A DNA stretch of 64,000 nt from an uncultured Armatimonadetes bacterium (lineage in GTDB: Bacteria; Armatimonadota; Hebobacteria; Hebobacterales; Hebobacteraceae): NCBI GenBank assembly GCA_963716175.1, contig OY970296.1:1696001-1760000 (forward strand). The letters run 5' to 3'. The position numbers and the translations under genes are program-made. Below are positions 15,262-33,099 of this stretch, piece after piece. Position 1 is the stretch's first letter; the number at the start of each line of letters is the position of its first letter. The notes beneath the pieces are model-generated. The model saw only the letters and a program-made list of their open reading frames with translations. It had not been told where the DNA came from and did no database searches.

Positions 15262-15299
15262 TTACAAATCAGCCGCTCTGCCAACTGAGCTACGCCGGC
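15262..15299 (-). pseudogene. tRNA-Thr(TGT) 5' half fragment (att site)
   Basis: Exact tRNA positions 1-38 ending in the anticodon loop; preceded by a CTGACA-17-TAGAAT promoter (15312-15340). Confidence 0.85.
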
Positions 15300-15335: not shown

Positions 15336-15962
15336 TCAGCCCGTGCGCACGGGTTCCGGCGGTCGGCGTCGCCAGGAAGACAGGCGATTCCAGATCCACC
15401 GCCAAGGCCTGCAGCAGAGGTGCCAGAACCTTGTTGCAGGTGAGCGCTCGGCGCTCACCGCATCCAGGTTCTTCACCAGCTCCTCGGTGCTGTCAACGGC
15501 TCCTGCCGCGTACTTCACAGCATCGGCAAGGCCGCCTGTGATCGCGGTGTCGGCAACGGATCTCACACTCGCACTAGGTGCTGAAGATCGGGCCACGCAG
15601 TGTTGGTTGACCAGGCGCAGTTTGTCCAATAGCACCTTGAGCCGCATGTAGCAGATGGCAGTCTTAATGGCGAGTTCTCTCGGCAGCAGCAATAAGCGTT
15701 GTCCCGCGCCGTCGAATAGAGGGAAGTAGTTCTCCTCCGAAGACCACCGAATATCGTTCGGAAGCGCCTTCCCCTGCACCGGCTTCACTTCGTCCCAGCG
15801 CGTCAGCAACGCCCGAAGCTCGGCCGCCAAAGCGCCTGCAAGCAGTGTTTTCTCATACTGCCGTTGCCGGTTCGCGCGAATCCAGGCGAGGAATTCAGAT
15901 ATGCCAATGCCGACGAGTACTGCGCCAGCCCCTATCAGGCTGCCTTTGATCGTGGAATCCAT
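15336..15962 (-). CDS. Hypothetical protein with N-terminal TM helix
   Basis: RBS ggagggg before [20 protein letters not shown]; helical, lower-GC island gene. Confidence 0.6.
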   Translation of the reverse strand: MDSTIKGSLIGAGAVLVGIGISEFLAWIRANRQRQYEKTLLAGALAAELRALLTRWDEVKPVQGKALPNDIRWSSEENYFPLFDGAGQRLLLLPRELAIKTAICYMRLKVLLDKLRLVNQHCVARSSAPSASVRSVADTAITGGLADAVKYAAGAVDSTEELVKNLDAVSAERSPATRFWHLCCRPWRWIWNRLSSWRRRPPEPVRTG

Positions 15963-16065
15963 CGAGAAACCCCTCCGCTCCTGGACAGGATAGCACGCAA
16001 GGACACCTCGGTCCATCATCCACAGGCTTCATGCCCGGTCGGTATTGCAGAGCGAGCAGCCCCGG

Positions 16066-16585
16066 TCAGCGGAGGAGCGGAGCGGGCTCAGTTGGGCGCA
16101 ACCCGTGCAGGCTGACCCCCTTCCCAATATCCGCCCTCGCGAACGCCCACCTCCTCTCGGCGTCGGCGGACTCCGAGTAGCGGGCGGTCATGATTGGACT
16201 GCGATGGCCCATGGCGCGGATCAGGGCCGTGGTGGGCACTCCGGCCATCGCCGAGGTCAGACCGAAGTAGTGGCGCAGCCGGTGCGGGGTGGCCAGCCTC
16301 GGGTCTACGCCGGCCTTCTCCGCGATGCGCTTGAGAATGGTGCGCACCGCATCCGTGGTCAGCCGCTCGCCAGGCGGCCGCGCACCCGGATGGGCCTTCC
16401 CCGTGTCCCGATAGGTGCAGAGCTGCTGGCCAGAGCCCAGGGTGATGAAGAGAGGATCTTCCTCGCTCAGGCGAGGGCACACCCCGGAGCGCAGCCGCAG
16501 CCAGGACGCCATTAACCCGGCTACCTCCGGCTTCACCCTCTCCTCTCCGTCCACGATCGTCAGTGGCAGGTCGACAGAGCGGGTG
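16066..16585 (-). pseudogene. Truncated tyrosine integrase (C-terminal half), paralog of 13791-15017
   Basis: RSVDLP...PEVA...DPLFITL...PHRLRH.FGL.AMAGV..TAL..AMGH.SP.MTARY...RR..FARADI aligns with the intact integrase; N-terminal half missing. Confidence 0.85.
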
Positions 16586-16834
16586 CGCCGAGCGACGCTG
16601 GCAGAAGGGGAAGCGACGGGACACGCCCATGTCGCCGAGAGCGACGCTCCGTTCGATGTGTTCGCGTTCCGACGTGGCGATCGGGTGGTGACGCTGTACT
16701 TGCGGGCAGCCCAGGCCGTGCGCGTTCTGCACGAAGAGCACCGCCTGGTCACACTGCAGCCAGGACTGTACGAGATCGCCCGTGTCCTTGAGCGTGACTG
16801 GCTGACCGGAGTCACGCGAGAGGTTGTGGACTGA
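16586..16834 (+). pseudogene. 5'-truncated fragment of the phage/MGE-type 'LAEGEATGHAH...HEEH...L.PG.Y' protein family
   Basis: TLAEGEATGHAH, VLHEEHRLVTLQPGLYEI...RE.VD*; no plausible start after the integrase junction. Confidence 0.6.
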
Positions 16835-17229
16835 GGGGCGGCTGCCAAGCATCGGGAAGGAGCGAAGGATGGCGAAGGCACTGTGGGCGCCGACGGTAAC
16901 GAAGGGAATGCCCGAAGCGTGAGAGACGTCCAACTAGACGACTGGGTGCGTAGTGCCGGCAATCCTCTCGTCCTGTCAGGTACAAGCCGTTGCAGCCCCG
17001 GGGGTTGTCCCCCCGAAAAACGTCATCCTCGAGACAACCATCGAGCAGCCACGGGACATCTGGGGCTTTTGGGGATTCGGACCTGTTGTAGAGGTCCCTA
17101 TAGGACGGCGCGTCAACAGCCCCCCCTGCAGTTTCCCGACGACCATCCTCTGGTCTCTAATGAGACATGTCCCTATCGGCGCTCGCGTCGCGCAATCTAT
17201 CGTCGGTTTCGGGGGGCCTGTCCTGTCCG

Positions 17230-17464
17230 GAAACTCATCTGGCTCTCAGCGCCTCTGCAGAGCCCACAGTGTGGTTGCCTATCCCCCCGATACCCCTGTG
17301 CTGAGAGGCACCAAGGATGACCGAGCGATACCGGGTGAGGTCGTGGCGGGGCGGGGCTGCCGGTGAGCGCTACCGTGGCGCGGCTGCTGTCCCATCCGCT
17401 ACGGAGTCCGGACCGTGAGACCCCACGCCGAGGAGGTAGCCGGAGTCGGGGGTGGCCGGGGGCG
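17230..17464. repeat. Island repeat family, copy A (full, ~235 bp)
   Basis: gaaactcatct...gccgaggaggtagccggagtcgggggtggccgggggc; aligns with 26224-26457, 27284-27416, 28335-28375 and 29478-30845. Confidence 0.8.
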
Positions 17465-17566
17465 GCTTCACGGGCGGTTGACAGGGATACACAGTCCGAC
17501 CCCCTCTGGCGCGGCGAACAGCCGGCCGGCCCGGCACCAATCCCATTTGGACGCGGGCGCTGGCCC

Positions 17567-18199
17567 TTACCAGGCACGCACGTTCCAGCTCAGGACCGCG
17601 TAGCCGTAGGTATGGTGCGGAGAGCTATTGGAGACGTAGATCGCCGGGTTCAGCTGGAGCGTCGGTGTGAAATTGTAGATCAGCCCCGCCGTCGCGAAGT
17701 TGTCGCTTCCCGCCTGATAATCCACCGCCACCTGTAGCTGGCGGTTCACAGCATGGGCCCAGCCCAGCAGCGAAGAAAGCTGATAGCCCTGCCGGATCAC
17801 TCCCGCAATGAGGTAGTCGCGTCCACTGACCCATCCGGCCTCCAGGAATGGCTGAAAACCCTGGCCCGGGCCTGGCGCGTAGAGGCCGGTCGAGAACAGT
17901 AAGTGCGGGCGCTGCACCAGACCATACTCCACGCCGCCTATGAACTGCCCAGGCGAGAGGCCCCGGGACAGTGCCACCTCGAGCTTCCGCGTGAGGCCTA
18001 CCTCGAACTGCAATTGCTTGCTGTTCCCGATGGCGGGATGCTCGCCTTGGAAGCTGATCGACAGCACCCCCTCCGGCTGAGTGTCTGGGGTGATGATCTG
18101 GTTCAGACCCTTGGTGGTTGCCCCCGCGGGAGAACCGGCTGCGACCGAAAGGGCCAGTCCGGCTAGCGCGCTGAAACCAGCCAGGCGCAGAGTTGTCAT
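17567..18199 (-). CDS. Secreted, probable outer-membrane beta-barrel hypothetical protein
   Basis: Signal peptide (AxA); GLNQIITPDT motif; alternating beta-strand pattern; C-terminal Trp. Confidence 0.65.
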   Translation of the reverse strand: MTTLRLAGFSALAGLALSVAAGSPAGATTKGLNQIITPDTQPEGVLSISFQGEHPAIGNSKQLQFEVGLTRKLEVALSRGLSPGQFIGGVEYGLVQRPHLLFSTGLYAPGPGQGFQPFLEAGWVSGRDYLIAGVIRQGYQLSSLLGWAHAVNRQLQVAVDYQAGSDNFATAGLIYNFTPTLQLNPAIYVSNSSPHHTYGYAVLSWNVRAW

Positions 18200-18885
18200 C
18201 TCGGTGGGCCTCTCTGCAACCCGCCGGGTTACCTACCGGCAGGTAGCCACCGGACCAGCGATTGCCTTAGTCGGGATTCCCCCATCAAGCCGCTTGTCCC
18301 TCCTTGGGGCGGCTACCCCTCTGTTGCCGGGCTGATCTGCTGCCTCGGGCGCGACAGGGCCTCGAGATCCTCCCCAATCGATGCGTTTTCCGCGTTTCGC
18401 GCGGTCTGTCACACTGCCATCCACAACGTGATGCCACTGGTCTGGGCACTCGAACTGGTGTCTTAAGCCCACTTGACACCCGCAGAGCGGTCGGCGCGAT
18501 GGAAGGTGCCTTTGCCCAACACGGTGCCCCCCGTCCCCTCCTTCATGACGGCTCGACGAGCGATCCCCCGCTGCCATCTCCAGGACCTGATTCGCCGCAG
18601 ACTACCATAGGCTAGGTCGAGCCCGACGGGCGTCAGACTCTCTGGAGAGCTTGGTGTCCTCGCCTCAGATCGTGGTGGAGACGTGCCAGCCGAGCAAGAG
18701 GCGTTCTGACCTTTGCGGAAGAGAGTGAGACGTGTTAGTATCACGCCGCACTCAACCCGACCGAAGCCATCAGAAGTGCCTGATCGCAAGCAGTTGAGTG
18801 AGACCGTCGGGATCCCCCGCGTGTCCCATTCGTGCCGATGCGTCGCGCCACTTTGGGCCCCGCGCAGGTTCCCAGGAGGTCTGGC

Positions 18886-20631
18886 GTGGCCGAGCCACTT
18901 GGATGCTTCGTACTGGTGTTGCATGGACACCTCCCATATGTGCTGGAGCACGGCGGCTGGCCGCATGGTAGCGAGACGCTGTTCGAGGCTGCGGCCGATT
19001 CCTACATACCGCTGCTGTGGACCCTGGAGGAGCTGGCTCACGAGGGGGTAACGCCTAGGGTAGTCATCAGCCTTTCCCCCGTCCTCCTGGAACAGCTTGC
19101 CGATGATGGCTTCAGGCAATGGTTCGTGGACTACTTAGAGGACACGATCCACTGGGCCGCGGAGAACGAACGGGAGTTCCGAGCCTCTGGCGACGGGCAT
19201 GCCGCATTCTTGGCCCGCCGCTGGCGGGAGCGTTACGAGGCCCTGCGCGAGAGCTTCTGTAACCGCTACAACCGCGACTTACCAGCGGCCTTCCGACGGC
19301 ATCAGGAGGCCGGGCACATCGAGATAATGACGAGTGCAGCCACCCATGCCTACCTGCCGCTTCTGCGGGAGGACGGCAGCGTGCAGCTTCAGACTAAGCT
19401 GGCCGTGGCCACCTACGAGAAGCACTTTGGCCGCTGGCCGCGGGCGATGTGGTTGCCCGAATGCGGCTACCGGCCGCGGGCGATGTGGGCACCGGCCCCA
19501 CAGATCGCGGGCCCGGAGGCACCTTATCCCCGCAAGGGCACCGAGGAATTCCTGGCAGAGAACGGCATCGACTACTTCATCATCGACACCCATATGCTGG
19601 GAGGCGGGGGACCAGAGCCTATCGAAGTCGACTGGCAACACACCTTGGGTAAGCTGTGGGGAGGAATTCGCAAGGCACGCGAGCCGCGGCCCTATTCCGG
19701 TGAGAAACGTCCCTACTTCCCCTACTTCGTCGGCCACTACTATGAGGACCATCCGCCTGTGGCCGTGTTTGCCAGAGATCCCGAAACCGGGGTCAAGGTG
19801 TGGAGCGCTGATCATGGCTACCCCGGCGACGCCGACTACTTAGAGTTCCATAGGAAGCACGCTCCGGGCACCCTCCGCTACTGGCGAGTCACGGGCCCAG
19901 AATGGGCACTCGGTGATAAGGACTGGTACCACCCGGATTGGGCGGAGGGGAAAGCTCGACTGCATGCTGGCAACTTCCTGTGGACGGTGAAGGAAACACT
20001 GCGCGCCCAGCCCCGTTCCGGCGGCCGGCTTCCCGTGCTGGTGGCGGCCTTTGACGCCGAGCTGTTCGGCCACTGGTGGCATGAGGGGCCTCTGTTCCTG
20101 GCCCATGCCCTGCGCTGGATGCATCAGGACCCCGACATCGAGGTGCTGACCGGCAGTGATTATCTGGCCCGCTACTCGCCCGAAACCGCGATCACCCTCC
20201 CCGAGGCATCCTGGGGAGCAGGCGGCGGCCATCAAGTCTGGCTGAACGACGAGACCAACTGGATCTGGCAGCGCATCCATGATGCCGAGCTAGACGTGAA
20301 GGCACTCCTGAACGACCATGGCTGCGGCCACGACAGTGCGATGCGGGCCTTGATCGAGCAGGCGCTGCGCCAGCTGGTGCTGCTACAGGCGTCGGACTGG
20401 CCGTTTCTCATCACCACCTGGACAGCCCGTGACTACGCGAGCCAGCGTGTGCACTGCCATCACTCTGACTTCAAGCGAGTGGCCGGGATAGCCCGCAGGT
20501 ACGGCCGGGGCGAACGACTCACGGAGGAGGAGCGGCACTACCTTGAGCATCTTCAGGAGCGGGACCGTCTCTTCCCGGAGATCGACCCCGCCTGGTTCGC
20601 GGAGGAGGCCAGGCCAGCTAGGTGGGCCTGA
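18886..20631 (+). CDS. GH57 1,4-alpha-glucan branching enzyme (DUF1957 C-terminal domain)
   Basis: LHGHLPYV, W..EA..DSYIPL, WLPECGY, YLEFH, FDAELFGHWW.EG and QASDWPFL motifs; RBS aggagg before GTG. Confidence 0.92.
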   Translation: MAEPLGCFVLVLHGHLPYVLEHGGWPHGSETLFEAAADSYIPLLWTLEELAHEGVTPRVVISLSPVLLEQLADDGFRQWFVDYLEDTIHWAAENEREFRASGDGHAAFLARRWRERYEALRESFCNRYNRDLPAAFRRHQEAGHIEIMTSAATHAYLPLLREDGSVQLQTKLAVATYEKHFGRWPRAMWLPECGYRPRAMWAPAPQIAGPEAPYPRKGTEEFLAENGIDYFIIDTHMLGGGGPEPIEVDWQHTLGKLWGGIRKAREPRPYSGEKRPYFPYFVGHYYEDHPPVAVFARDPETGVKVWSADHGYPGDADYLEFHRKHAPGTLRYWRVTGPEWALGDKDWYHPDWAEGKARLHAGNFLWTVKETLRAQPRSGGRLPVLVAAFDAELFGHWWHEGPLFLAHALRWMHQDPDIEVLTGSDYLARYSPETAITLPEASWGAGGGHQVWLNDETNWIWQRIHDAELDVKALLNDHGCGHDSAMRALIEQALRQLVLLQASDWPFLITTWTARDYASQRVHCHHSDFKRVAGIARRYGRGERLTEEERHYLEHLQERDRLFPEIDPAWFAEEARPARWA

Positions 20632-20964
20632 AGGCACCGCGTATCCATGGCTGGGGCGAGTGTGCTTCTCAACAGCACGCTGTGCAGACCGCCGGTAAGC
20701 GGGGCGCTCCTGACCATGCGGGCCAGAGGACTTCACCAGGACGACAGAAGAAGGTGAGTCGGTGTTCTCCTCCCCCCTTTTCGACGGTTGCATGGATCGG
20801 GGGAGACCTTTCCTGCTTCCTGCTGCACCCGCCACGCGAGATCGGTGTCATCCCCCTCGGCCTTTCCGGCCTGCTTTACAGGTGAGCCTGCAAACCTTCG
20901 AGATGGCCTCCTAGGCGGACAGGGCGATCAGGCAGATCGGGGGGTAGAACCACCAGCCCAAACG

Positions 20965-21234
20965 AGTTGCGCGCCACGAGCGCGGCCTGCGTCAACTACT
21001 ACAGCCGCGAGCGCTACCACGGGGCGCTGAGGAACGGGACGCCAGACGATGTCTACTTCGGCCGATAGGAAGCCATCCTGGCGCGGCGAAAGGCGCTCCA
21101 GGTCAGGAGCTTTGTGGCCCAGCGGGAGTACCACCGACGGATGGGAGAAGGGGACTCAGGATGCAGGGGCCGGAACATCCGAGGTACAGGTTAATGCAGC
21201 ACCCGTCTTGTCCCACTCTTGCTGACGCCGGACA
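20965..21234 (+). pseudogene. IS3-family transposase C-terminal remnant
   Basis: Translates [34 protein letters not shown], like the YN..RYH.AL.NVTP.DVYFGR..IL tail of IS3-family transposases; in-frame stop. Confidence 0.65.
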
Positions 21235-21284
21235 CCTCGATTCACCTCGGGTTCGCCAGCCTCGGCGCCCAGGAGAGACAGCCA

Positions 21285-22490
21285 ATGCCAGCTGATACGG
21301 TCGTGGTCATCTTGGCCGGCGGCAGAGGAGAGAGACTGCTGCCGCTGACCGAGCATCGGGCGAAACCGGCCGTCCCCTTCGGCGGCAAATACCGCATCGT
21401 CGACTTCGTCCTCTCCAACTGCATACACTCTGGCTTGAACACCATCATCTTTATTCCGCAGTATAAGTACGACTCCCTGCTTCGCCATCTGGACCTCGGC
21501 TGGGATATCTTCAATCCTGAAAGAGGCGAGTACCTGAGAACTGTTCCTCCCCAGATGCGGGTCTCGGAGGAGTGGTACCAAGGCACCGCTGATGCGGTCT
21601 ACCAGAACCTCTACTCCCTGAGCACCGAGAACCCGAGATATGTGTTGTTGCTATCCGCTGATCAAGTCTACAGACTCGACTACAGGAACGTGTTGCGTTT
21701 CCATGTTGACAAGGGAGCTGAATTGACAATCGCTGGAGTGCAGGTTGACAAGGAGAGCGCGAGAGGACTGGGGGTCATGTCGATTGACGATGAGCAGAGA
21801 GTGGTCGCTTTCGAGGAGAAGCCGGCAACCCCTGCGACCTTGCCTGGTCAGCCCGACCAGTCGCTCGTTTCCATGGCGGTCTACGCTCTTGGGTCCCGCA
21901 TCCTCGTTGAACAACTGGAAGAGGATATGGCCAATCACAGCAGCAGCCATGACTTCGGGAAAGACATCATTCCCAAGATGGTCCGGAACGGGAGGCGGGT
22001 GTACGCCTACGTGTTCAGGGACAGCACGACGGGTGAGACGGGTTACTGGCGGGATATCGGTACCATTGAGTCCTACTATGAGACGAACATGCAGTTGCTG
22101 GATCCCGAGCCGCCGTTTGATATCTACAGCGCAGACTGGCGGACGATCCAGCGACAGCTCCCGTCGGCCAAGATCGTTTTCAAGGCGCAGATTAGGGAGT
22201 CGATCGTCGGAGAGGGCTGTATCATTGACGAGAGCACAATCTCTCGCTCGATCTTGTCGCCGGGAGTCAGAGTCGGGCCGAGGACCCAGATTACGGAATC
22301 CATAGTCATGGAGGGGGTCGAGATTCAAGAAGGCGCTAGGGTCGTGAGAGCGATTATCGACAGAGACAACGTGATTCCAGCTGGGTCAAGCATCGAGGCC
22401 GGGAAGATGGACTATCGGGGCAGCGCCGAGGTAACCGCCTCAGGGATAGTGGTTATTCCTCGGGCCATTCCCCAATGGCATGGTCGATAG
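21285..22490 (+). CDS. glgC: Glucose-1-phosphate adenylyltransferase
   Basis: ILAGGRGERL.PLT..RAKPAVPFGGKYRIVDF, WYQGTADAVYQN, FEEKP, HDFGKDIIP and YWRDIGT motifs. Confidence 0.95.
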   Translation: MPADTVVVILAGGRGERLLPLTEHRAKPAVPFGGKYRIVDFVLSNCIHSGLNTIIFIPQYKYDSLLRHLDLGWDIFNPERGEYLRTVPPQMRVSEEWYQGTADAVYQNLYSLSTENPRYVLLLSADQVYRLDYRNVLRFHVDKGAELTIAGVQVDKESARGLGVMSIDDEQRVVAFEEKPATPATLPGQPDQSLVSMAVYALGSRILVEQLEEDMANHSSSHDFGKDIIPKMVRNGRRVYAYVFRDSTTGETGYWRDIGTIESYYETNMQLLDPEPPFDIYSADWRTIQRQLPSAKIVFKAQIRESIVGEGCIIDESTISRSILSPGVRVGPRTQITESIVMEGVEIQEGARVVRAIIDRDNVIPAGSSIEAGKMDYRGSAEVTASGIVVIPRAIPQWHGR

Positions 22491-23529
22491 CGAGCTATCA
22501 CTCTGGGTGAGGGAAGAATGCGCTGTCGTGACCTGCCCCGGTTGGGGTGCTCCCCGATCTTGATCCACCCGGAGTGAGGCCTTTTGTGGTAGGTGCGCAG
22601 GGCTGCGGCCACGACTGTGCTTGAACGGGTGGCTTCGGGCGTGCCGCACCTCCAGGCAGAGGGGGAGTTCCTCTGTCACGTCCAGGGCACGAAGCCCATG
22701 GTGTGGGTGAAGCAACCGCAGAGAAGGGCTGGTAGGGGCGTCCTGGTCGATAGGGTGAAGCCCTCTGTCTGACTGCCGCGGCCGCTTGGCCTAGGCGGCC
22801 GTCGTGGTAGTGAGAGCGGGAAGACGGAATGGGATGCGGAAGGGGCGGGTGCATCTTCTGGGTTCGGACTGCCGCGCCCCCGGGACTACGACCTCCCCTC
22901 GGGTCGCGGCGCGAGTCTCGGGTGCGAACGGACGGCTGCCGCCGTCGGTCCGGTATGCCCGAGCGGCCGCAAGTGGAGGGGAGGCAGGGGCCTGCATACT
23001 GTGTGACCGTCTGGTCACCCTGAGACCCATGTCGGGGAGTCGACTTGGTCCCATAGTGAGGTGGAGAACCCCCTGGCGTGGCCTGAGTCGCACTCCTAAG
23101 ACTGCACCAGACCGGGCACGAACTAGTGTTCCGGCGACACTGGGGCGGCTATGACCGCGGTCGCACGCCAATCTGACCTACACATACGGTCTTGGAGTGC
23201 CGGCGGGTGAGTCTCTGGACACTGCGGCGTTCGGCCGAAGGGGGTGCCTCCGGTGTCGCACCCGTCCATCATCCCGGTCAGGACGCGTCGCCGACCCGCT
23301 TCTGATCGCCGCCGCTCCCTTTGATACTCGCCCGTATCGCTACCATCGACCGCCTGATCTGTCGGCGCCGCAGCCTCCGTTCGCGCTTTCTGTGCCTGTC
23401 AGTCCCCTTCATCCTCTTGTCCCTTTCTCTACCAGCGTCATCTCTTCGTCGCTGGCCGGTGTGTACCCGATGTCATCAGCCGACTGCCCGAGGAGAAGCC
23501 AGCGCCTGTACCCTAAGGCGGCTGGAGAC

Positions 23530-23571
23530 AAAGCAAGAGGGCCGAGGCAAGCGCCATCCGCCTCGGCCCTC
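23530..23571 (-). terminator. Rho-independent terminator of groESL
   Basis: gagggccgaggc...gcctcggccctc 12-bp stem followed by ttgcttt on the minus strand. Confidence 0.65.
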
Positions 23572-23581
23572 GCCGCGGAGA

Positions 23582-25198
23582 TCAGTACTCAGGCGGCGGG
23601 GCGGGTGCCGGCATCTCCTTCTCCGGCTTCTCGGCGACCAGCGCCTCGGTGGTCAGCAGCATGCTCGCGATGGAGGCGGCGTTCTCGAGCGCGAAGCGCG
23701 TCACTTTCACCGGATCCATGATCCCGGCCTTCGCCATGTCCTCGATCTGCTCGGTGATGGCGTTGAAGCCGATGCCAGGTTTCTCGGCCTTCACCCTGGC
23801 GACGATCACGGAGCCCTCGGCGCCGGCGTTGTGGGCGATGGTGCGCAGCGGCTCCTCCAGGGCGCGGCGGACGATGTCGACGCCGACCTTCTCATCGCCC
23901 CGGACCTCCCTGCGGACCTTGTCGAGAACATGGGCCACGTTGAGATAGGTCACGCCACCACCGGGCACCATGCCCTCCTCGACTCCCGCGCGGGCGGCGG
24001 AGAGGGCGTCCTCGAAGCGGTGCTTCTTCTCCTTGAGCTCGGTCTCAGTGGCCGCGCCGACCTTGATCACGGCGACGCCGCCGGCCAGCTTGCCGAGGCG
24101 CTCCTGGAGCTTCTCGCGGTCATAGGAGGAGTCAGTCTCCTCGATCTGGCGACGGATCTGGTCCATGCGACCCTCGATGGCTTTGTGGGAGCCGGCGCCC
24201 TCGACGATGGTGGTGTCCTCTTTGGTGATGACGACCTTCTTGGCATGGCCGAGCTCGTTGAGGGCGACGTTCTCGAGCTTCATGCCGAGGTCCTTGGAGA
24301 GGAACGTGCCGCCGGTGAGGGTGGCGATGTCATCCATCACCGCCTTGCGGCGATCGCCGAAGCCGGGGGCCTTCACCGCGGCGGCCTGAACGGTGCCCCG
24401 GATCTTGTTGACGACCAGGGTGGCCAGCGCCTCACCGTCAACCTCTTCGGCGATGATGATGAGGGGCCGGCGGGAGGCGGCGACCTTCTCGAGGAGGGGC
24501 AGGATGTCTGCGACTACGCTGATCTTCTCCTCGTGAATCAGGATGAACGGATCTTCGAGCACCGCTTCCATGCGCTCGGGATCGGTGACGAAGTAGGGGG
24601 AGATGTAGCCCTTGTCGAACTGCATGCCTTCGACCACCTCCACGGTGGTTTCGGTGCCCTTGGACTCCTCGACCGTGATGACGCCTTCCTTGCCCACCTG
24701 GTCCATGGCGTCGGCGACAAAGCGGCCCAGTTCGGGGTCATTGCCGGCGATGGAGGCGATGTGCTCGATCGCCGCCTTGGTGTCCACCGGCTTGGCGATG
24801 CGCTTGATCTCGGCCACCACCGCTTCCACGGCCCTCTCAATGCCCCGCTTGAGCGGCATCGGGTTGATGCCAGCGGCGACCATCTTCATGCCTTCCCCGA
24901 GGATGGCTTCGGCGAGAACGGTGGCGGTGGTGGTACCGTCGCCGGCGACGTCCTTGGTCTTGGAGGCAACCTCACGCACGAGCTGGGCCCCCATGTTTTC
25001 GTAGGGCTCCTCCAGCTCGATCTCCTTGGCCACGGCCACGCCATCCTTGGTGATGGTGGGGGAACCCCACTTCTTGCTGAGGACCACGTTCCGGCCCTTG
25101 GGACCGAGCGTAGCTTTCACGGCGGCCGCGACCGCCCTCACCCCACGCTGCAGGGCTCGGCGCGCGTCTTCACTATAGCAGAGCATCTTGGCTGGCAT
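23582..25198 (-). CDS. groL: Chaperonin GroEL
   Basis: [42 protein letters not shown] and [10 protein letters not shown] motifs. Confidence 0.98.
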
Positions 25199-25239
25199 TC
25201 CTCTGACCCTCCTCTCTCTGGTGCACTGCGGCCAAGGAC

Positions 25240-25551
25240 CTACTTCTTGCCCTTAGCCTTCTTCGGCTCCGGGTTGATGGCGAGCACTGATCCTTCATCC
25301 AGGATCACCAGATCCTCACCGTCCACCGTGATCTCGGTGCCGCCATACTTGGTGTAGACGACGATATCACCCACTGACACTTCCATAGGGGCGCGCTTTC
25401 CACTGTCGAGCACCTTGCCCGCACCCACCGCCACCACTTCACCCTCCTGCGGCTTCTTCCTGGCCGTGTCGGGGAGGACGATTCCTCCCTTGGTCACCTC
25501 TTCCTCGGGGCCAGGCCTCACCACGATGTGGTCCCCAAGCGGCTTCAGCAT
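25240..25551 (-). CDS. groS: Co-chaperonin GroES
   Basis: [40 protein letters not shown]. Confidence 0.98.
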
Positions 25552-25983
25552 ACCATCACCTCCGTCTTGTGACTGCCACGCTCAGCGCCAACGCCAGAGC
25601 TGTGGCCCGCCGTCCGGCCCTGTGAGCGCTTCGCACAGGAAGACTAACACGGCCCGTGTGCGGCCGTTGTATGAAGAACCCCAACACTACCAAGAAGGGC
25701 GATAAGGCCTCGCACCGCGGCCCTGCCTCCGTGGGTCGCGCCACGGCGGCATTGTGTTGGCACGGGTACTCGGCCGCCTCTTCCCAACTGAAGATGACCG
25801 CCCTTGCCCGTACTGTCTCCATAGGACGGGCGGAGACGGCGAAGGAGAATCTGCGCACGGCAGGACTCGGGGTGAGAGGGGAATCGCCTCTGCAGGATTC
25901 TGCAAAGGCGATTGATACCCGGGCCGAACTCGCCTCTGTGGCGGCCGCCTCCCACGACACCTTCGCCTCGGAGCGGGAGGACA

Positions 25984-26118
25984 CTACTTGGAGCAGGAGC
26001 CCTCGGGCTTGCAGGTCTCCTTCTTCTCGGTTTCGCAGCTCTGCTTCTTCTCGGTCTCGCAGACCTCTTTCTTCTCAGTCTCGCAGGTCTGCTTCTTCTC
26101 CTTCTCGCAGTCTCCCAT
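25984..26118 (-). CDS. 44-aa Cys-rich octad-repeat peptide MGDCEKEKKQTCETEKKEVCETEKKQSCETEKKETCKPEGSCSK
   Basis: Strong RBS aggagg 7 nt before ATG; 24-bp repeat units that vary synonymously (acc/act, aag/aaa), consistent with coding. Confidence 0.65.
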   Translation of the reverse strand: MGDCEKEKKQTCETEKKEVCETEKKQSCETEKKETCKPEGSCSK

Positions 26119-26223
26119 TTCACGTCCTCCTATTGTCTGTATGCAGTCTATTTGGGGGCCAGTCCTCAGTATCCTGCCGTGCGCATCAACAAATGCGAAT
26201 ACTTGTGACGGTTGTCGCAGTAT

Positions 26224-26457
26224 CCAGAAACTCATCTAGGCTTCCAGGACGCTCCTGCAGACCAATCGTGGTATTCCCGGCGATCGCTGACATGCCTGTG
26301 TCGGGAGGCCGCCGAGGATGGGCGGGGATGCTGAGCTGAGATTGGACCGGGCGGGCCTGCCGGTGATTACCGCCGTGGCGCGGCTCCTCTGAGCTACCGC
26401 TCCCATCCGCGACGAAACCCCGGACAATGACTTCAAGCCGAGCGGGTGGCCGGAGTC
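26224..26457. repeat. Island repeat family, copy B
   Basis: ccagaaactcatct...cctgtgtcgggaggccgccgaggatgggcgggga...ccgtggcgcggct...cccatccgcgacgaaaccccggacaatga...gccgagcgggtggccggagtc. Confidence 0.8.
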
Positions 26458-27079
26458 AAGGGGAGCCCGGGGCCACTCGCCCCCCGAAGAGGCCGCCCAG
26501 TCCCATCAGTGGCTCGAATCCACCGGTCAGATCAACTCCCCACTTGCCGTTCTCCTTGGCAAGGGCAAGCGGCAGCCTTAGCGATTGGACCGATTCGCCT
26601 TGTTTGATGGTCTGGTCGATCGTCACCGTGGCCCGATCGCCGGTCACCTCAACCGCCGTCGCCCGCCAGGACAATTCCCTGGGCTGTCCGGTCTTGGCTG
26701 TGGTCTGGCCCGGCCTAGCCTGCTGCTCGAGGGGGCCCAGGAGTTGCTGCGTCTCCGTGGTGCAGAGCTCCCGCGTCCTGCCGGTGTCTCCTTCGTAGAT
26801 GGAGCGCATGAAGGCCTTTGCCGTCGCTCTCGGTGAGTTGGGGGTGACCAGGTCCAAGACCTGGTAGTACCAGGCGCCGGCCACAATCGCTGCCAGCACT
26901 ACCAGGGAGAACAGCTTACCGTAGAGGCCTGAGGGCCGCTTTATCTTCACCGGAAGACGGCGCACCAGCGTTGACGGCCGCCACGCGGAAGGAGGCGGCA
27001 CATACGGGGGAGTCGCGGAAGAACCAGGAGGCGGAGACGCGGGCTCCTGCCCTCCTCCGAGGGGCTGCAACGAGTCCAT
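26456..27079 (-). CDS. Membrane protein with DUF4878/NTF2-like C-terminal domain
   Basis: RBS aggaggtag; Pro-rich N-terminus, one TM helix, SP..TAK.F..GD, GD.A.V and L.KENGKW.V motifs. Confidence 0.7.
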   Translation of the reverse strand: MDSLQPLGGGQEPASPPPGSSATPPYVPPPSAWRPSTLVRRLPVKIKRPSGLYGKLFSLVVLAAIVAGAWYYQVLDLVTPNSPRATAKAFMRSIYEGDTGRTRELCTTETQQLLGPLEQQARPGQTTAKTGQPRELSWRATAVEVTGDRATVTIDQTIKQGESVQSLRLPLALAKENGKWGVDLTGGFEPLMGLGGLFGGRVAPGSP

Positions 27080-27283
27080 TCCACTACCTCCTGGCGGGGC
27101 GGTCGGGACCGATCGCACAACGAGAAACGACTATCCGATTCGCCGGGAAGAATCCTGCCTCGCCTCCGGGTGGCATGTACCGATACACCGCCACTTCTGG
27201 TGTCCGGCTCTCCTCCTGCAGCAAGGTGTCTGTGCTGCGAGCACCTCCTCAACACTTACAGGGGGAGACCGTCCTATGATAGC

Positions 27284-27416
27284 CCAGAAACTCATCTGGC
27301 CTCAGAGCCCGTGTAGAGCCCATAGTGTGGTATTCTCCCCCCTCGTGCATACCCCTGTGTCGGGAGGCCGCCGAGGATGGGCGGGGAGGCCCAGCGGGGA
27401 CTGGACTGGGCGGGGA
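27284..27416. repeat. Island repeat family, copy C (left part)
   Basis: ccagaaactcatctggc...agagcccatagtgtgg; exact 34-bp match (27354-27387) to copy B (26295-26328). Confidence 0.8.
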
Positions 27417-27547
27417 TTCCCGGCGCCGCTTGACCTTCGGCCCTGAAATGGGCCCGCAGTTCGTCATCAGCGTGTCGCCGAGTGGGCACCGTAGGGCCAG
27501 AATCGCGCAGACGAGTCTCCGAATACTGCGTGCTGGGCAAGCGGTGG

Positions 27548-28105
27548 CTACCGCACCCACTCAAACGGGGCCGGGCGACGCTCTGGCGGACCGGGCTTCT
27601 CACTGGGATAGCCGACGATGGCAGCGGCCATCAGTTCGTGTCCCTCAGGCAGGTGCAGCAACTCGCGCACTTCGTCATCCTCCCTCCCGAACATGAGGAA
27701 TCCGACGTAGCAGGTGCCCAACCCCTTCGCATGGGCCGCGAGGAACAGGTTCTCGGCGGCGAGTTGGCAGTCGATCATCGCAGTTGGCGCCGTGGGGTCG
27801 CCGGAGATGATGATCACGGCTGGCGCGTTGTAGAAGATGCTGAACTCGGGATCGCTCAGCACCTGGCGCAGCCCTTCGTTGACCAGGCTCTCTGCCGGGG
27901 CCGGGGCCAGCAGCAGGGCCTTGATGCGCTCGTTGAGCTTCGCCATCACCTGGCGATTCGTGATAACCGTGAAAGCCCAGGGCTGGCTGTTCATCCCGGT
28001 CGGTGCAAGGATCGCCAGCTCCTTCAGCAGGGCTTCGCTTACGGGCCGGTCTTCATAGGAGCGGATCGAACGCCGCGTTCGTACCACCTCGAAGAAATCA
28101 GGCAC
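27548..28105 (-). CDS. Nitroreductase family protein
   Basis: TRRSIRSY, APT..NSQPW.F.V, NAP, D..LAAENL.LAA..GLGTC and GYP motifs. Confidence 0.92.
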   Translation of the reverse strand: MPDFFEVVRTRRSIRSYEDRPVSEALLKELAILAPTGMNSQPWAFTVITNRQVMAKLNERIKALLLAPAPAESLVNEGLRQVLSDPEFSIFYNAPAVIIISGDPTAPTAMIDCQLAAENLFLAAHAKGLGTCYVGFLMFGREDDEVRELLHLPEGHELMAAAIVGYPSEKPGPPERRPAPFEWVR

Positions 28106-28334
28106 TGCCTCTGCTCCCGACGTGCAAAGTCGCGAGGCTGGATTGCGTCCGGCTCTCCGTGACCAAGCCGCGCCTGGGAAGCCGCCAGACCAGCTAGAGG
28201 CTGCCACGTGAGCACAGGCCAGTTGGCTTCTTCAGCGTGGTGGACGGTCCTCCCTCGCGAGCCGCCGAAGCGGCCACGCGATCGTACAACCGCCCTTCTG
28301 CTGACGACGTATGCGCCGGAACCCCACACAACTA

Positions 28335-28375
28335 GCCGAGGGGGTAGCAGGAGTCGGGGGTGGCCGGGGGCCGTC
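28335..28375. repeat. Island repeat family, copy D (right end)
   Basis: gccgagggggtagcaggagtcgggggtggccgggggc, 35/37 identical to the end of copy A. Confidence 0.8.
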
Positions 28376-28725
28376 GGCGGGGATGCTTCAGCGGAAGCAG
28401 AGCGAGGGGCTGGCCGCGTTCACTCTGCCTCTGTACCTGCCGGCAATGGCCTCGGATCAGTCCTGGAACGCTACGACAGGCGCGGGTATAATGTGGACCT
28501 CTCGCATGACCGCTGACCTCCACGCCGAGATCATCGCCATCAAGCGCGCGGTCTGCGCGGTGCCGCAGTATCGGAAGAACCTGCTCTCGGTTCATGTCTA
28601 CGAGGCCGTGCTGGAGTACGGCATCCGCGGGCTGGATGCGTTCTGGCAGCGGTGGGCAGCCAGATACGGACAAGGGTGAAGCCAACTCCGTATTACCGTC
28701 GAATCACTGGAAACGGAGGCGTGAC

Positions 28726-29376
28726 ATGCAGGGCGTGGGCATAGGGGCAAGTAAGCCAGATGTGAACGTGTCGGGCACCGTCTTCACCCGGGTCTTCTGG
28801 CTCTACGGTCTCTACACACTGCTCTCGAACGCGACCTTCCTCTTCGGTTACTTCATCCTGCCGGAGGGCTTCATGCGGGGGAGTCCGCAGGTCGCCGTCG
28901 GCCGCGCGGCGCATACCGGCGAGTTCTGGTCGGAGTTCGGGCTCACGCTGCTGTTCAACATCGCCGGAGTCGTCACCCTCTGCGTGGTGCTCAACTTCAA
29001 CCAGGTGAAGAGGATACCGATGGGCTACATCATGCCCGTCTCGCTGGGCGTGGTGACAGGTCTGATCTCGGGCACCAACTCCTTCGCTGCCAGCGACCTC
29101 TCTCGCTACTCGGCGCGTGAGGGCATGGCGCTGGGCATCAGCATCGGCGGCCTGGAGATGCTGGGGTACATCCTGGTCATCGCCGCTACCGTGAGGTACG
29201 GCGTCTACCAGTACCGGAGCTGGTGGCGGTGGAACGGCGAATGGAAGCCGATGAAGGTGATGAACCTGAGAGAGGTCCGGCTAACCCGTCCTGAATGGTA
29301 CTGCCTGGCTCTGGGCCTACTCCTGATCCTCACCGGCGCGTACCGGGAGACACTCTTCGCTCTCCGCGGTCACTAG
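28726..29376 (+). CDS. Multi-pass membrane protein (SpoIIM-like C-terminal pattern)
   Basis: RBS ggaggc; about 5 hydrophobic segments; G.LE..GY and LL...A..E motifs. Confidence 0.65.
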   Translation: MQGVGIGASKPDVNVSGTVFTRVFWLYGLYTLLSNATFLFGYFILPEGFMRGSPQVAVGRAAHTGEFWSEFGLTLLFNIAGVVTLCVVLNFNQVKRIPMGYIMPVSLGVVTGLISGTNSFAASDLSRYSAREGMALGISIGGLEMLGYILVIAATVRYGVYQYRSWWRWNGEWKPMKVMNLREVRLTRPEWYCLALGLLLILTGAYRETLFALRGH

Positions 29377-29519
29377 CTCCGGGTGCCCATACCAGGCCCT
29401 CTGGAGCCGGCCTATCATCACGCCGCCAACCGGAAAGTGGTGACCCGCGTGTCCGAGAAGAGCCCTCGCTCGACGACCCGCGACGAACCCCCGGACAGTG
29501 ACCCCAGCCGAGGGGGTAG

Positions 29520-30812
29520 TGTACAGACTGGATAGATAGGTAACACTCGTACCGGATACATAGGTAACGGGCAAGCGGTTACTATAGAGGCATGCATCTC
29601 TTCCTAGAGGAGAGGGGCCATGCCCTGGGAGCCAGTTACCGTGGAGCAGCAGCGACGGGAGTTTGTGATGTTCGCCCAGCAGGGGAGGGTGCCGTTTCGG
29701 GATCTGTGCCGCCGCTTCGGCATCAGCCCCAGGATCGGCTACAAATGGTGTTATCGCTTTGCTGAGGCCGGGGAAGTGGGCTTGCGGGATCACTCCCGCC
29801 GGCCCCACCGGAGGCGCCCGCAACTGCCGGCAGCCACCCAGCAGGCAATCGTGGCGCTCCGCCAGGCGCACCCGTGCTGGGGAGCCCGCAAGCTTCGCCG
29901 GCTGCTCCGCAACCAGGGCCTCCACCCCGTGCCAGCCACCAGCTCCATTACCGCGACCCTGCATCGGCACACGCTCATCGGTGCGGACTCGCCTGCGGGT
30001 CAGCGCCCCTGGGTGCGTTTCGAGCGCCCACTGCCCAACGACCTCTGGCAGATGGACTTCAAGGCGCCGGTAGCGACGCAGACGGGTCCCCAGCACGTGC
30101 TGAGCGTGCTGGACGATCATTCTCGCTTTGCCCTCTCTCTGCAGGCGCTGCCCAAGCAGGACGGGTGCTCCGTGCAGGCGGCGCTAGTGGCCGCTTTCCG
30201 GCACTATGGGGTGCCGGAGGCGATGCTGTCGGACAATGGAGGTCCCTGGGGAGATCTGGCCGCGGACGCATATGGGGCGCTGGCGGTGTGGCTGATGCGG
30301 CTGGGGATATACGTGACTCACTCTCGGCCCTACCATCCCCAGACCGTGGGCAAGGATGAACGCTTCCATGGCAGCTTGCAGCGAGAGCTGCTGGCGCGGC
30401 ACCAGTGGCGAGACGGGGAGCACCTGCAGGCGCACCTGGATCCGTGGCGGGAGCAATATAACTTCCTGCGCCCTCACGAGGCGCTCGCGCTGGAGGTGCC
30501 GGCAAGTCGCTACCAGCCCAGCCTGCGCGCCTACCCCGCGCAGCTGGAGCCGATCCAGTACCCGCCGGGGCTGCCGGTGCGCAAGGTGCAGCGTGGGGGC
30601 GAGGTGCACTTCGGGGGGCGTCTGCTGCCCGTTTCCAAGGCCTTCCGCGGTCAGCCGGTGGCCGTGCGCGCCACTGATATCGACGGCCTGGTGGAGGTGC
30701 TCTTCTGCCATCAGGTGATCAAACGCCTGACACTAGGGGAGTGCCCGAAGGCGGAGTAGAAGTGTTACCTATGTACTCGGCACATCCGTTACCCATGTAA
30801 CCGGTCCGCACA
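29520..30812 (+). mobile_element. IS481-family insertion sequence
   Basis: TGT...ACA ends with repeated subterminal (a)taggtaac / gttacc(t/c)at motifs; 5-bp target duplication ggtag (29515-29519, 30813-30817). Confidence 0.92.
29620..30759 (+). CDS. IS481-family transposase
   Basis: MPW, LCRRFGIS...YKW, WQMDFK, LDDHSR, SDNG.PW, HPQT.GKDERFH and YN..RPHEAL motifs. Confidence 0.95.
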   Translation: MPWEPVTVEQQRREFVMFAQQGRVPFRDLCRRFGISPRIGYKWCYRFAEAGEVGLRDHSRRPHRRRPQLPAATQQAIVALRQAHPCWGARKLRRLLRNQGLHPVPATSSITATLHRHTLIGADSPAGQRPWVRFERPLPNDLWQMDFKAPVATQTGPQHVLSVLDDHSRFALSLQALPKQDGCSVQAALVAAFRHYGVPEAMLSDNGGPWGDLAADAYGALAVWLMRLGIYVTHSRPYHPQTVGKDERFHGSLQRELLARHQWRDGEHLQAHLDPWREQYNFLRPHEALALEVPASRYQPSLRAYPAQLEPIQYPPGLPVRKVQRGGEVHFGGRLLPVSKAFRGQPVAVRATDIDGLVEVLFCHQVIKRLTLGECPKAE

Positions 30813-31011
30813 GGTAGCCGGAGTCGGGGGTGGGCGGGGCCGTCAGGCTACTTCTCCGGGAAGACAAGGGGCATCCCTCATGGCAGCAGCGCTGACCCCG
30901 CTCACGCGGGCGCCATCGCCAGGTGCGCGTCGCCCGCCGGCGAAGGTACGCGCACATGACTCTCATCGTGTCTCGCCATGCTACCGGCCGGCACCGAAGG
31001 GAGTGTGTCAT

Positions 31012-33099
31012 ATGAGATACTGGCTGCTCTTGACTGTGTCCTTGTCGCTGCTGATCCCGGCCTGCGCCGGCGAACATCCGAATGCCCGGCTCTATCTAGT
31101 CGCGCAGCAGGACTATGGCAAGGCGACCGGATTCTACCTCGACCTGGAGGGAGGCACACTGCGTGACCTGCCGATCATTCTGGGAGTGGGCGACGGCAAG
31201 GAGTGGCGCTTCCCCCAGCACGGGCCCGGCTTCGTGCCGAATCGACCCTATCACGTCCGTGCGGTGATCTCCCCGGAGCGCGGGCAGCTATTCCTCGACG
31301 GCGTACTGGTGGCGGATAGCCCGGGCCGGTGGCAGCCGACAGAAGGCGCGCTGACCGTGAACGAGCGCCCCGAATGGATGCCGGAGGTGGGCGACTGGCT
31401 GGCCGAGCTGGGAACGATCGTCGTCACGCTCAGTCGAGGCGGAAAGCAGGTCACGCACCAGCAGTTCCTTGGCTCGCCGCGCCGACCGGTGGCGTTGCAG
31501 CTCTTCCAGCCTGACGATCCAGACTCCGCGCCGTTCGCGCCGCGACCGGGGGACACGGTGACCATGGACCTGAGCATCACCTTCCGCACCTATGACCTGC
31601 ACTCGCTCGCACCGTTGACAGATCGCTATGGGCAGTGCCGCTATGCCGACTGGCCCGGCAAAGTGCGCTCGGATGATGATCTCAAGCATGACATCGAAGA
31701 CGAAGCGGCGCGCCTCGCCGCCATGCCCTTTTCCCCCGACTTCGACTCCTATGGCGGCTACCGCAAGGCCGGCTGGAAGGAGAAGGCCACCGGCTTCTTC
31801 CGCGTCACCAAGCGCGACGGCTTCTGGTGGCTCATCAGCCCCGAAGGCAACCCGACCTTCTACCTGGGCGTCTGCAGCGCCCCCTCAGCGGTGTGGACGG
31901 CGACACCGGTCACCGGCCGGGAGTACCTGTTCGAGTGGCTGCCGGAGCGCACTGGCGAGTATGCTGGCACGTGGGGGCATGACGACTGGGGGACGGGCGA
32001 GAACACCGACTTCGCGTCCCTGTACGCCTGCAATCTGATCCGTAAGTATGGCGATAGCTGGCAGCGCCGCGCGGAGGTGCAGAGCGTTCAGCGGTTGCGC
32101 TCCTGGGGCTTCAGCGGAGGCGGTAAATGGGGCACACCCGAGGCCTTGGTGGAGACGCCCGTGGTGAGTCGCGGAGGCGTGCCAGACCTGGTAGACCATC
32201 CCGACGTCTTCGATCCGGCTGTACAGGAAGCGGTCCGGGCGAGGCTGGCCGAGCAGATCACCCCGCGGCGGAGCGATCCCCGCGTCCTTGGCTGGGCGGT
32301 CGGCAGCGAGAAGGATGAGCTGATCCAGCCAGACGAGATCCTGAAGATCCTCCAGATGGCATCGACCGCCCCGGCAAAACGCGCGCTCATGGACTACGTG
32401 CTTGGCTCTCGCTACCGCGGCTCGCTCAGCGCTCTCGGTACGGCCTGGGGCCTCTCCGCGGAAACGCGCGAGGGATTGTACGCGACGACACCTACTCCTC
32501 CGCCGCCGGATGTGGAGGCGATGCGCCTGTACTATGTGGACAGGTACTATGAACTCCTCTACCGGACAGTGAAGGCCATCGACCCGAACCATCTCTACCT
32601 GGGCTGCTATCTCTGTCCCGTCTGTGCGGAGCGCGAGGAGGACTGGCTCCTGGCCGGGCGCCACGCGGACGTGGTGAGCTATGACCTCTATACCCTGGAG
32701 TACGGCAACGAGCGGCTGCGGCGCATGGAGGCCGAACTGGGCAAGCCGACGTTCTGCGGGGAGTTCTCCTACCCGGCCTGGTACGACGGACAAAGGGGAT
32801 TTGGGAGGTTCCGTGTGAGCACGCGGGACGACGCCGAGGCCGGTGAGAAATACCGCGCCTGGGTGCAAGCTGCGGCTCGTGACCCGCATTGCGTCGGTGG
32901 CTCCTGGTTCGAGTATCGTGACCAGCCGATCACTGGCCGAGGGCCGGGGTATGGCCCGCGGCCGGTCTACGGCGAGCATTTCGCCTTCGGGCTGGTCGGC
33001 GAGACCGACCGGCCGAAGTGGGAGATGGTAGCGCGAATGCGGGAGGCGAACCTGCGGGCCGCGCACTGGCGGATGGAGGCTGCACGGCAGAGGCAGTGA
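31012..33099 (+). CDS. Secreted clan GH-A glycoside hydrolase, beta-agarase (GH50)-like
   Basis: Signal peptide; D.YGQ...DWPGK, D.YGG...ATGFF....DG.WWL..PEG, DVFDP, DPNHLYLG, GEF, P..VG..WF.Y.DQ..GR motifs. Confidence 0.75.
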   Translation: MRYWLLLTVSLSLLIPACAGEHPNARLYLVAQQDYGKATGFYLDLEGGTLRDLPIILGVGDGKEWRFPQHGPGFVPNRPYHVRAVISPERGQLFLDGVLVADSPGRWQPTEGALTVNERPEWMPEVGDWLAELGTIVVTLSRGGKQVTHQQFLGSPRRPVALQLFQPDDPDSAPFAPRPGDTVTMDLSITFRTYDLHSLAPLTDRYGQCRYADWPGKVRSDDDLKHDIEDEAARLAAMPFSPDFDSYGGYRKAGWKEKATGFFRVTKRDGFWWLISPEGNPTFYLGVCSAPSAVWTATPVTGREYLFEWLPERTGEYAGTWGHDDWGTGENTDFASLYACNLIRKYGDSWQRRAEVQSVQRLRSWGFSGGGKWGTPEALVETPVVSRGGVPDLVDHPDVFDPAVQEAVRARLAEQITPRRSDPRVLGWAVGSEKDELIQPDEILKILQMASTAPAKRALMDYVLGSRYRGSLSALGTAWGLSAETREGLYATTPTPPPPDVEAMRLYYVDRYYELLYRTVKAIDPNHLYLGCYLCPVCAEREEDWLLAGRHADVVSYDLYTLEYGNERLRRMEAELGKPTFCGEFSYPAWYDGQRGFGRFRVSTRDDAEAGEKYRAWVQAAARDPHCVGGSWFEYRDQPITGRGPGYGPRPVYGEHFAFGLVGETDRPKWEMVARMREANLRAAHWRMEAARQRQ

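Follow-up and report, generated by a model that had tools for sequence, protein, structure and literature searches.

In an uncultured Armatimonadetes bacterium (assembly GCA_963716175.1, contig OY970296.1), positions 1,696,001 to 1,760,000 form a 64,000-nt stretch, hereafter the window and numbered from its first letter, in which a repeat of about 235 bp recurs in one orientation between unrelated genes, next to two related tyrosine recombinase genes. This locus raises the question of whether the repeat is (i) the recombination site of an integron-like gene-capture platform, or (ii) the conserved end or origin of serially integrated elements, as an initial annotation had alternatively proposed. 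The answer that we favor, with a probability of roughly 0.6, is a mosaic of selfish-DNA modules, made up of the left end of an insertion sequence (IS) and an element resembling MITEs (miniature inverted-repeat transposable elements), gathered in a variable tenth of the chromosome, in which the right-hand module is an IS target and would also provide homology for recombination.

Two modules, the left one an insertion-sequence end

The repeat consists of a left module, L, and a right module, R, which occur together or singly and are accompanied by exchangeable flanking segments (M2, T1, T2 and T3). A direct-repeat search, reading of the sequence and iterated nhmmer searches recovered copies A to D on the same strand of the window, with matches that are far above chance (E down to 1e-59). 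Together with the interrupted copy E, the features of the repeat in the window are as follows, the profile being the one described below.

17224-17459, plus strand: copy A, L module (~17224-17392) joined to R (~17393-17459); nhmmer profile positions 1-242, E 9.6e-42
17317-17319, plus strand: ATG remnant of the transposase start in copy A, reading frame broken
17460-17491, plus strand: T2 tail of copy A, GGGCGGCTTCACGGGCGGTTGACA then ..ACA, terminal-repeat-like; pattern match at genome 1713460-1713483
26221-26470, plus strand: copy B, both modules, with 26221 as the first position of L's terminal repeat; profile 1-243, E 1.8e-59
26318-26392, plus strand: transposase start remnant in copy B, 24 codons, then TGA
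27284-27422, plus strand: copy C, L module only; profile 4-142, E 3e-26; ATG remnant at 27377-27379, 18 codons
28298-28420, plus strand: copy D, R module at 28298-28367 (profile 163-242, E 3.1e-8) with a T1-type tail, GGCCGTCGGCGGGGATGCTTCAGCGG...
29440-29519, plus strand: copy E, left part, M2 spacer GTGACCCGCGTGTCCGAGAAGAGCC... plus R; R match at 29475-29519, profile 177-222, ending in GGTAG
29520-30812, plus strand: IS481-family element within copy E, 1293 bp; transposase open reading frame (ORF) 29620-30759; Pfam rve/HTH_32
29520-29568 and 30764-30812: terminal inverted repeats of the IS481-family element, 49 nt, imperfect
30813-30850, plus strand: copy E, right part, R from profile position 219, GGTAGCCGGAGTCGGGGGTGGGCGGGGCC; R piece 30813-30845

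The same-orientation copies between unrelated genes that had been described initially were borne out, A to D being placed by nhmmer and the copies being readable in the sequence; likewise present are the exact 34-mer common to B and C, the 35/37 match of A to D (94.6% over 37) and all of the motifs quoted. The fifth copy, previously taken as a long right part extending over 29478-30845, proved to be a single R copy (29475-29519 plus 30813-30845) that is split by the 1293-bp IS481-family element, with GGTAG duplicated at the target. In copy B, the right end of R overlaps the stop of a minus-strand gene (26456-27118).

The profile was grown from copy B in three rounds of nhmmer against the genome (4.56 Mb, one contig, 66% G+C), which gave 46, then 125, and again 125 matches. 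The repeat, first seen as a local feature, is therefore present in 125 copies genome-wide, with lengths of 40-250 bp. Both modules are present in 29 of these (26 essentially full length), L only in 25 and R only in 68, while three are left halves of R cut by the IS481-family element.

L, which spans profile positions 1 to ~170 (about 170 bp), comprises a terminal inverted repeat (CCCGYSC-TGTCCAGAAACTCATCTGG), a TG-extended -10-like sequence (TGGTATTCT) that, read by eye, lies about 45 nt into the module and faces R, a GGGAGG ribosome-binding site, an ATG and about 24 transposase codons; in the consensus the ATG lies eight bases beyond GGGAGG and is followed by an open stretch. Translation from the ATG of each L copy mostly yields 2-150 codons, and the copy at genome position 2861802 yields 373 amino acids. 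That copy belongs to a full-length IS of about 1.42 kb (genome 2861802-2863220) with matching terminal repeats at both ends, which are mutually inverted (left end, CCCGTCGTGTCCAGAAACTCATCTG; right end, reverse-complemented, CCCGTCATGTCCAATAACTCATCGG). Its ORF starts with MERDAERGVDWVHLPVIATVARLL, and the remnants in copies A, B and C have the same start (MGGDAELRLDRAGLPVITAVARLL in B). L is the left end of a DDE insertion sequence. The 373-residue protein matches Pfam rve_3 (33 bits, cut-off 26.5) and, below cut-off, HTH_32; its best NCBIfam match is IS481, with 86 bits well below the cut-off of 224. By these domain matches it is a predicted DDE transposase of the rve type, distantly IS481-like. 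Full-length transposases that are 73-81% identical are encoded in other genera, one of them in another family, and are preceded by L.

It follows that the conserved block gaaactcatct is the terminal inverted repeat, and that ccgtggcgcggct encodes the transposase residues TVARL. The designation of the repeat as non-coding therefore holds for R and fails for the left 170 bp, which contain the transposase start and its roughly 24 codons. Because L literally is an IS end, the second of the initial alternatives, conserved ends of integrated elements, was half right. Conservation drops at the third codon position only within profile positions 97-168 (0.53/0.58/0.36 bits for the three positions, versus 0.59/0.49/0.54 upstream and 0.73/0.77/0.92 in R). 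The possibility that the whole repeat is a decayed coding sequence was rejected, as none of the frames stays open in the majority of the 26 full copies and codon-like conservation is limited to this interval.

Module R, its flanks and its spread

R is a non-coding module of about 75 nt with the core GCCGAGGGGGTAGCCGGAGTCGGGGG and without a consistently open reading frame. It is conserved as sequence, most strongly in GTAGCCGGAGTCGGGGG: a core of 17-20 nt is nearly invariant, while the copies average only ~63% pairwise identity. Read from the sequence, the core consists of two direct half-repeats, GGGGGTAGCC and GGGGGTGCCC. No conserved fold was found. The one recurrent stem (GACTCC / 17 nt / GGAGTC, 6 bp) shows no compensatory changes, substitutions breaking its pairs (at the fourth pair, 68 T-A, 14 C.A, 6 T.G and 1 C-G), and RNAalifold gave -2.7 and -10.9 kcal/mol for the two strands of full copies and -2 to -11 for R with its tails. 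A comparison of the window with Rfam 15 identified only three tRNAs at gathering score, and nothing at E up to 1 over 26100-30900 and 17100-17600, so that the Rfam check suggested for the repeat yielded no match. An intrinsic terminator or a sigma-70 promoter was also considered at the repeat, and simple scans called neither.

Most R copies are decayed or mosaic, with L, M2, T1, T2 and T3 flanks swapped around the conserved core, and to the right of R the copies show a few alternative continuations. T2, GGCCGGCTTCACGGGCGGTTGACA followed by nGGACA, has 47 genome copies at up to four mismatches; it abuts R in at least 20 copies, and the remaining T2 copies end at least two other repeat families. 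Since the interiors of these further families are unrelated, T2 looks like the common end of a superfamily of small elements. Examples of T2 at the ends of other short families lie at genome 26733, 79211, 1931739 and 4553763, and at 245564, 785648, 1994774 and 4518682. An inverted T2 stands some 100 nt to the left in 13 of the 68 solo R copies, with a conserved spacer and M2 coming after it, and 11 have a right-hand T2. At its start, CCCGCGTGTCCGGGAAG, M2 is similar to L's terminal repeat. In three units of 173, 177 and 219 bp, R lies between inverted T2 copies of 24-30 nt; on the basis of this arrangement, the R units with inverted T2 ends look MITE-like.

R is also the fixed-site, fixed-orientation target of the IS481-family element found in copy E. 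The transposase of this element passes the NCBIfam IS481 model NF033577 (261.2 bits, cut-off 224), and the genome holds four copies of the element that are more than 99.6% identical. All four lie in different R copies, at the identical position of R and in the same orientation relative to it, and each is flanked by a 5-bp duplication, GGTAG or GGGAG. At profile positions 195-207, the ends of other IS-like sequences border directly on R in at least five places. Another element, of the IS110 family and about 1716 bp long, is also present in four copies (at least 99.65% identical; genome 815741-817456, 782976-784686, 2787959-2789669 and 4047527-4049241); it was considered as R-targeting and rejected, because its flanks are unrelated to R.

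Beyond this genome, R was sought in 15 genomes of the family with a sequence-only covariance model built from 33 copies, scoring up to 150 candidates per genome. The model found at least 109 matches here, 82 and 39 in two genomes that both belong to one other genus, and one each in four further genomes, and it found none in 8 of the 15. The spread of R is thus patchy and mobile-element-like. An exact 23-nt R pattern, searched in ~185,000 species genomes, matched 13 stretches. Nine of these, in two metagenome-assembled genome records of Armatimonadota, are genuine copies of R, lying several to a contig on one strand; the other four, in Actinomycetota, were taken as chance matches, as they lie inside coding sequence and show no wider similarity. 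A limited search of the Armatimonadetes/Armatimonadota literature on MITEs and intergenic repeats returned no description of this repeat.

Accounting for the arrays

According to the reading that we favor, R would have spread as a non-autonomous, MITE-like element, L and R modules would have collected in a few regions of the chromosome whose gene content varies, and homologous recombination between R copies would duplicate and exchange the segments between them. A uniform strand would likewise be maintained by circle integration or by unequal exchange between direct R copies.

A number of observations weigh against this reading. Several concern the supposed element itself. The possibility that R is the right end of the L-supplying IS was considered and rejected, since that end is without R here and in relatives; the source of the recurrent L-R junction (26-29 copies, also in other genera) is consequently not accounted for. 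Both T2 termini are kept in only 3 of the 68 solo R copies, and this genome yielded no element bounded by T2 that carries a transposase. Neither L-R copies nor T2-bounded copies showed a recognizable target-site duplication, their exact ends being uncertain. The core of R is better conserved than the supposed termini, which is the opposite of the usual MITE pattern and hints that something recognizes the core itself. In addition, a DUF4878-like gene and the R that adjoins it are kept at 87% nucleotide identity in another genus (window 26456-27118; positions 1465-2178 of the relative's locus). The gene has its stop at or inside the end of R in both genomes, and no L copy was matched upstream of the relative's gene.

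The remaining difficulties lie in the distribution. The array-like clustering with uniform strand that was noticed in the window is real: seven regions, together covering 9.7% of the genome, contain 112 of the 125 copies, 59 of them in the largest region, at 1.904-2.108 Mb. Of the clustered copies, 106/112 are on the majority strand of their region, with neighboring genes pointing both ways, and a cut-and-paste MITE is expected to land in either orientation. Furthermore, whole inter-repeat segments recur in two or three arrays with different neighbors: 395 bp (92% identity), 815 bp (98.6%), 821 bp (three copies), 1033 bp (94%) and 1963 bp (98%), carrying ordinary genes, among them those for a PIG-L-like deacetylase (judged by motif) and for predicted lipoproteins and secreted proteins. 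Pairwise alignments inspected by eye place the change from dissimilar to similar sequence within the 3' part of R, at profile ~218 for one pair and at 238-245 for others.

Because strand uniformity, recurring segments and the conserved core are not accounted for, we retain, as unlikely, a recombination-driven cassette reading. This is not the integron-like platform run by the adjacent tyrosine recombinases that was proposed initially, which found no support: the genome has no IntI, its best match to the integron integrase model TIGR02249, confined to the C-terminal box, reaching 90.1 bits where the cut-off is 265 (40 bits for the window integrase); R shows no attC-like arms; and the clade of the window integrases, whose three members are the window pair and a gene at 4.519 Mb, is absent from the other six repeat regions. 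The repeat is scattered over the genome independently of these integrases and matches both an IS end and a decayed coding sequence, observations that the initial annotation had named as refuting its reading. What is retained is R as the crossover site of a dedicated non-integron system, in which a recombinase, for example of an Xer-like family, would insert, excise and shuffle segments and so build, in two genera of Armatimonadota, arrays that keep to one strand and reach ~60 sites over 200 kb; the IS481-family element would then have the role that IS1111-attC elements have in integrons. Such a system would be consistent with the strand bias, the unrelated genes between sites, the recurrence of segments between arrays with transitions inside R and the nearly invariant core between variable flanks; dense same-strand arrays are found in the second genus too, and orientation-specific IS insertion into R resembles that of the IS1111-attC elements. 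Xer-like homologs that are at least 73% identical occur in all three R-rich genomes. Here the family, which shares the parts of the chromosome where the repeat is found, comprises two intact genes and four fragments, and a related genome has eight genes.

Genome 808848-809825 and 2242359-2243840: intact Xer-like genes
Genome 1.953, 2.027, 2.102-2.103 and 2.114 Mb: 3'-terminal fragments of Xer-like genes

These copies are 85-88% identical in nucleotide sequence, and homology between their loci is limited to the gene itself. Against the cassette system, none of the arrays has an adjoining recombinase gene: the closest genes of the Xer-like family are 7-16 kb away from R, R is present in only two of the eight 20-kb Xer-like loci of the related genome, and two genomes carry an Xer-like recombinase without a match to R. 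Seven serine recombinase matches in the genome include none adjoining an array end. Moreover, the half-repeats of the core are direct and not the inverted arms of a tyrosine-recombinase core site, the transition points are spread over profile positions 218-245 and not fixed, R is not placed at gene ends, and copies are found in only 87 of the 245 intergenic gaps of the regions (36%; an approximate count, since the gene positions come from a crude caller based on G+C at third codon positions, as do all strand and distance counts given here). Four DNA metagenome runs gave contigs of mostly a few hundred bases, too short to show gain or loss of segments between strains, or circles, and the 'joints' seen in one run connect different repeat copies.

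Less probable still is that R is mobilized as single-stranded DNA or in a replication-coupled manner, like IS200/IS605-derived or REPIN-type elements, which would account for the uniform strand and for the absence of target duplications. R changes strand between 1.08 Mb (plus) and 1.61 Mb (minus), an interval that includes dnaA (1.3426 Mb) and the minimum of the cumulative GC skew (1.10-1.15 Mb), and the G-rich strand is on the presumed lagging strand in five of the seven regions. As regions and not copies are the independent units, five of seven is not significant and gives only a hint, and the skew curve is noisy. The genome has five weak Y1-transposase-like genes (frames of 177-198 amino acids, 23-37 bits; genome 962134, 1199920, 3132162, 3625861 and 4050831), but these lie at a distance from every copy, with neither R nor T2 flanking them, and the R hairpin shows no compensatory change. 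A TnpB/omega-RNA system was likewise considered and rejected, there being no TnpB in the genome. The five Y1-like genes could themselves be RAYT-like, with a repeat family of their own.

We consider it about equally improbable that R serves the host, as a protein-binding site, or as a transcript-end or stability element of the type of some REP (repetitive extragenic palindromic) sequences, in which case selection would maintain it and L remnants would persist as portable promoters. The near invariance of the core among diverged copies and across two genera would agree with such a role, as would the conservation of one gene plus R across genera and the nearness of L's left edge, in many copies, to a divergent gene whose start codon is 15-60 nt away (by rough gene calls, 40 of 52 copies have an upstream gene on the opposite strand). 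However, R is found in all four kinds of intergenic gap in roughly genome-wide proportions (of the solo copies, by gene strand relative to R, 27 tandem opposite, 9 tandem same, 18 convergent and 14 divergent), and its right end is not closer to the stops of opposite-strand ORFs than random intergenic points are (21/97 versus 425/1500 within 100 nt). No terminator- or promoter-like site was called, 8 of the 15 family genomes are without R, and 90% of the copies lie in 9.7% of the genome. Finally, a family of structured non-coding RNA genes, for which the -10-like sequence in L might provide a promoter, is very improbable, given that neither strand shows conserved structure or covariation, that Rfam has no match, and that the transcript would open with the ribosome-binding site and ORF remnant of a transposase.

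The neighborhood of the repeat and comparison with known systems

The presence of recombinase genes beside the repeats of the window would be explained by a genomic island at a tRNA gene.

13494-13569, minus strand: tRNA-Thr(TGT), outside the repeat family
13791-15017, minus strand: integrase, the first tyrosine recombinase (Pfam)
13532-13569 and 15262-15299: exact 38-nt direct repeat of the tRNA 5' half, 1.73 kb apart
15336-16962, minus strand: second tyrosine recombinase, frame-broken, 53% identical to the first over residues 212-380
36742-38127: Mutator-family transposase, in the island

Between 12 and 44 kb the window has a G+C content of 0.57-0.655 and no GC skew, compared with 0.66-0.69 and positive skew in the flanks, and this part (12000-44000) holds the repeat cluster, groESL, glycogen genes, the IS481-family IS and the Mutator-family transposase. 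Judged by composition and content, it is probably an acquired island that starts at tRNA-Thr. Within it, 13494-15299 looks like the remnant of a small integrative element, as the 38-nt repeat brackets only one intact integrase gene. Such an element would use the 5' half of the tRNA; integrative elements usually use the 3' end. Beside the 3' end of tRNA-Thr, two tandem 51-nt units that are 75% alike are found at 13347-13448.

Pfam matches in the window support a GH57 branching enzyme, a GlgC-type nucleotidyl transferase, a nitroreductase and the two tyrosine recombinases, in agreement with the gene calls of the initial annotation, and give a weak match for the DUF4878 protein. Its 'GH50-like enzyme' (30880-33099) and 'beta-barrel protein' (17567-18199) have no Pfam or NCBIfam match. 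A minus-strand ORF of 159 amino acids without a family match (25644-26123) contains, at 26002-26121, four to five tandem 24-nt repeats that code for a repeated octapeptide. The Mutator-family transposase belongs to a 1456-bp element (36693-38147, genome 1732693-1734147) with copies that are 99.9-100% identical at 2.000 and 2.809 Mb and partial copies at 1.067-1.071 Mb; this near identity indicates a recently active IS.

For annotation, the locus is a caution: what reads as a non-coding repeat between cargo genes beside integrases would be an IS end fused to a MITE-like element. Recognizing the repeat averts the false call of a gene-capture system and accounts for several short spurious ORFs. 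The family also marks a variable tenth of the chromosome in a little-studied phylum and offers a precise landing pad for an IS481-family element. The cassette reading, which rests on recombination at R, the uniform strand, the shuffled segments and the conserved core, would, if true, describe a second, independent way to build gene-cassette arrays.

Like integron cassette arrays, the arrays described here have same-strand sites between unrelated genes, segments that are common to different arrays and a site targeted by an IS. Unlike them, they come without IntI and without attC-like paired arms, the R consensus having no GTTRRRY/RYYYAAC pair; where the site lies does not depend on ORF ends, genes point in mixed directions, and only about a third of the gaps are occupied. 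The Xer/dif-type (pdif-like) site, of 28 nt with two inverted 11-nt arms and a 6-nt spacer and paired around modules, differs in that the half-repeats of the R core are, by eye, direct.

A further parallel is with reused or 'mobile' promoters (promoter reuse in prokaryotes, PMC3575422). The likeness is that L, as a homologous 5' region, lies immediately upstream of numerous unrelated genes; the difference is that L is demonstrably an IS end with a transposase start, and that a simple scan called no promoter in it.

In REP/REPIN systems with RAYT, the contrast with R lies in the lack of stem compensation here and in the Y1_Tnp matches being away from every copy. REP sequences are known IS targets (Tobes and Pareja 2006, PMC1525189). 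R is similar to them in being an abundant intergenic repeat that a specific IS has entered repeatedly, at a single position and in the same orientation (4/4). It differs from REP in its length (~75 nt), in having no compensated palindrome, in that the Y1-like genes have no flanking R, and in that the IS is of the IS481 family, the elements known to target REP sequences being of the IS3, IS110 and related families.

MITEs and mosaic intergenic repeats, such as BOX, Correia/NEMIS and RIME-type elements, provide the remaining comparison. With these IS-derived repeats the present family shares that it is small, non-coding, multi-copy and intergenic, that its modules occur in variable combinations, and that it has no transposase of its own. 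As in MITEs, L has its terminal repeat and 5' region in common with a full-length IS in the same genome, and a minority of units have inverted termini of 24-30 nt, which most copies lack. Unlike MITEs, the family shows no recognizable target duplications, its exact ends being uncertain, has termini that are less conserved than the core, is clustered on a uniform strand, and has no autonomous T2 partner among the elements found. In kind, the repeat belongs with the IS-derived mosaic repeats and the IS-targeted intergenic repeats.

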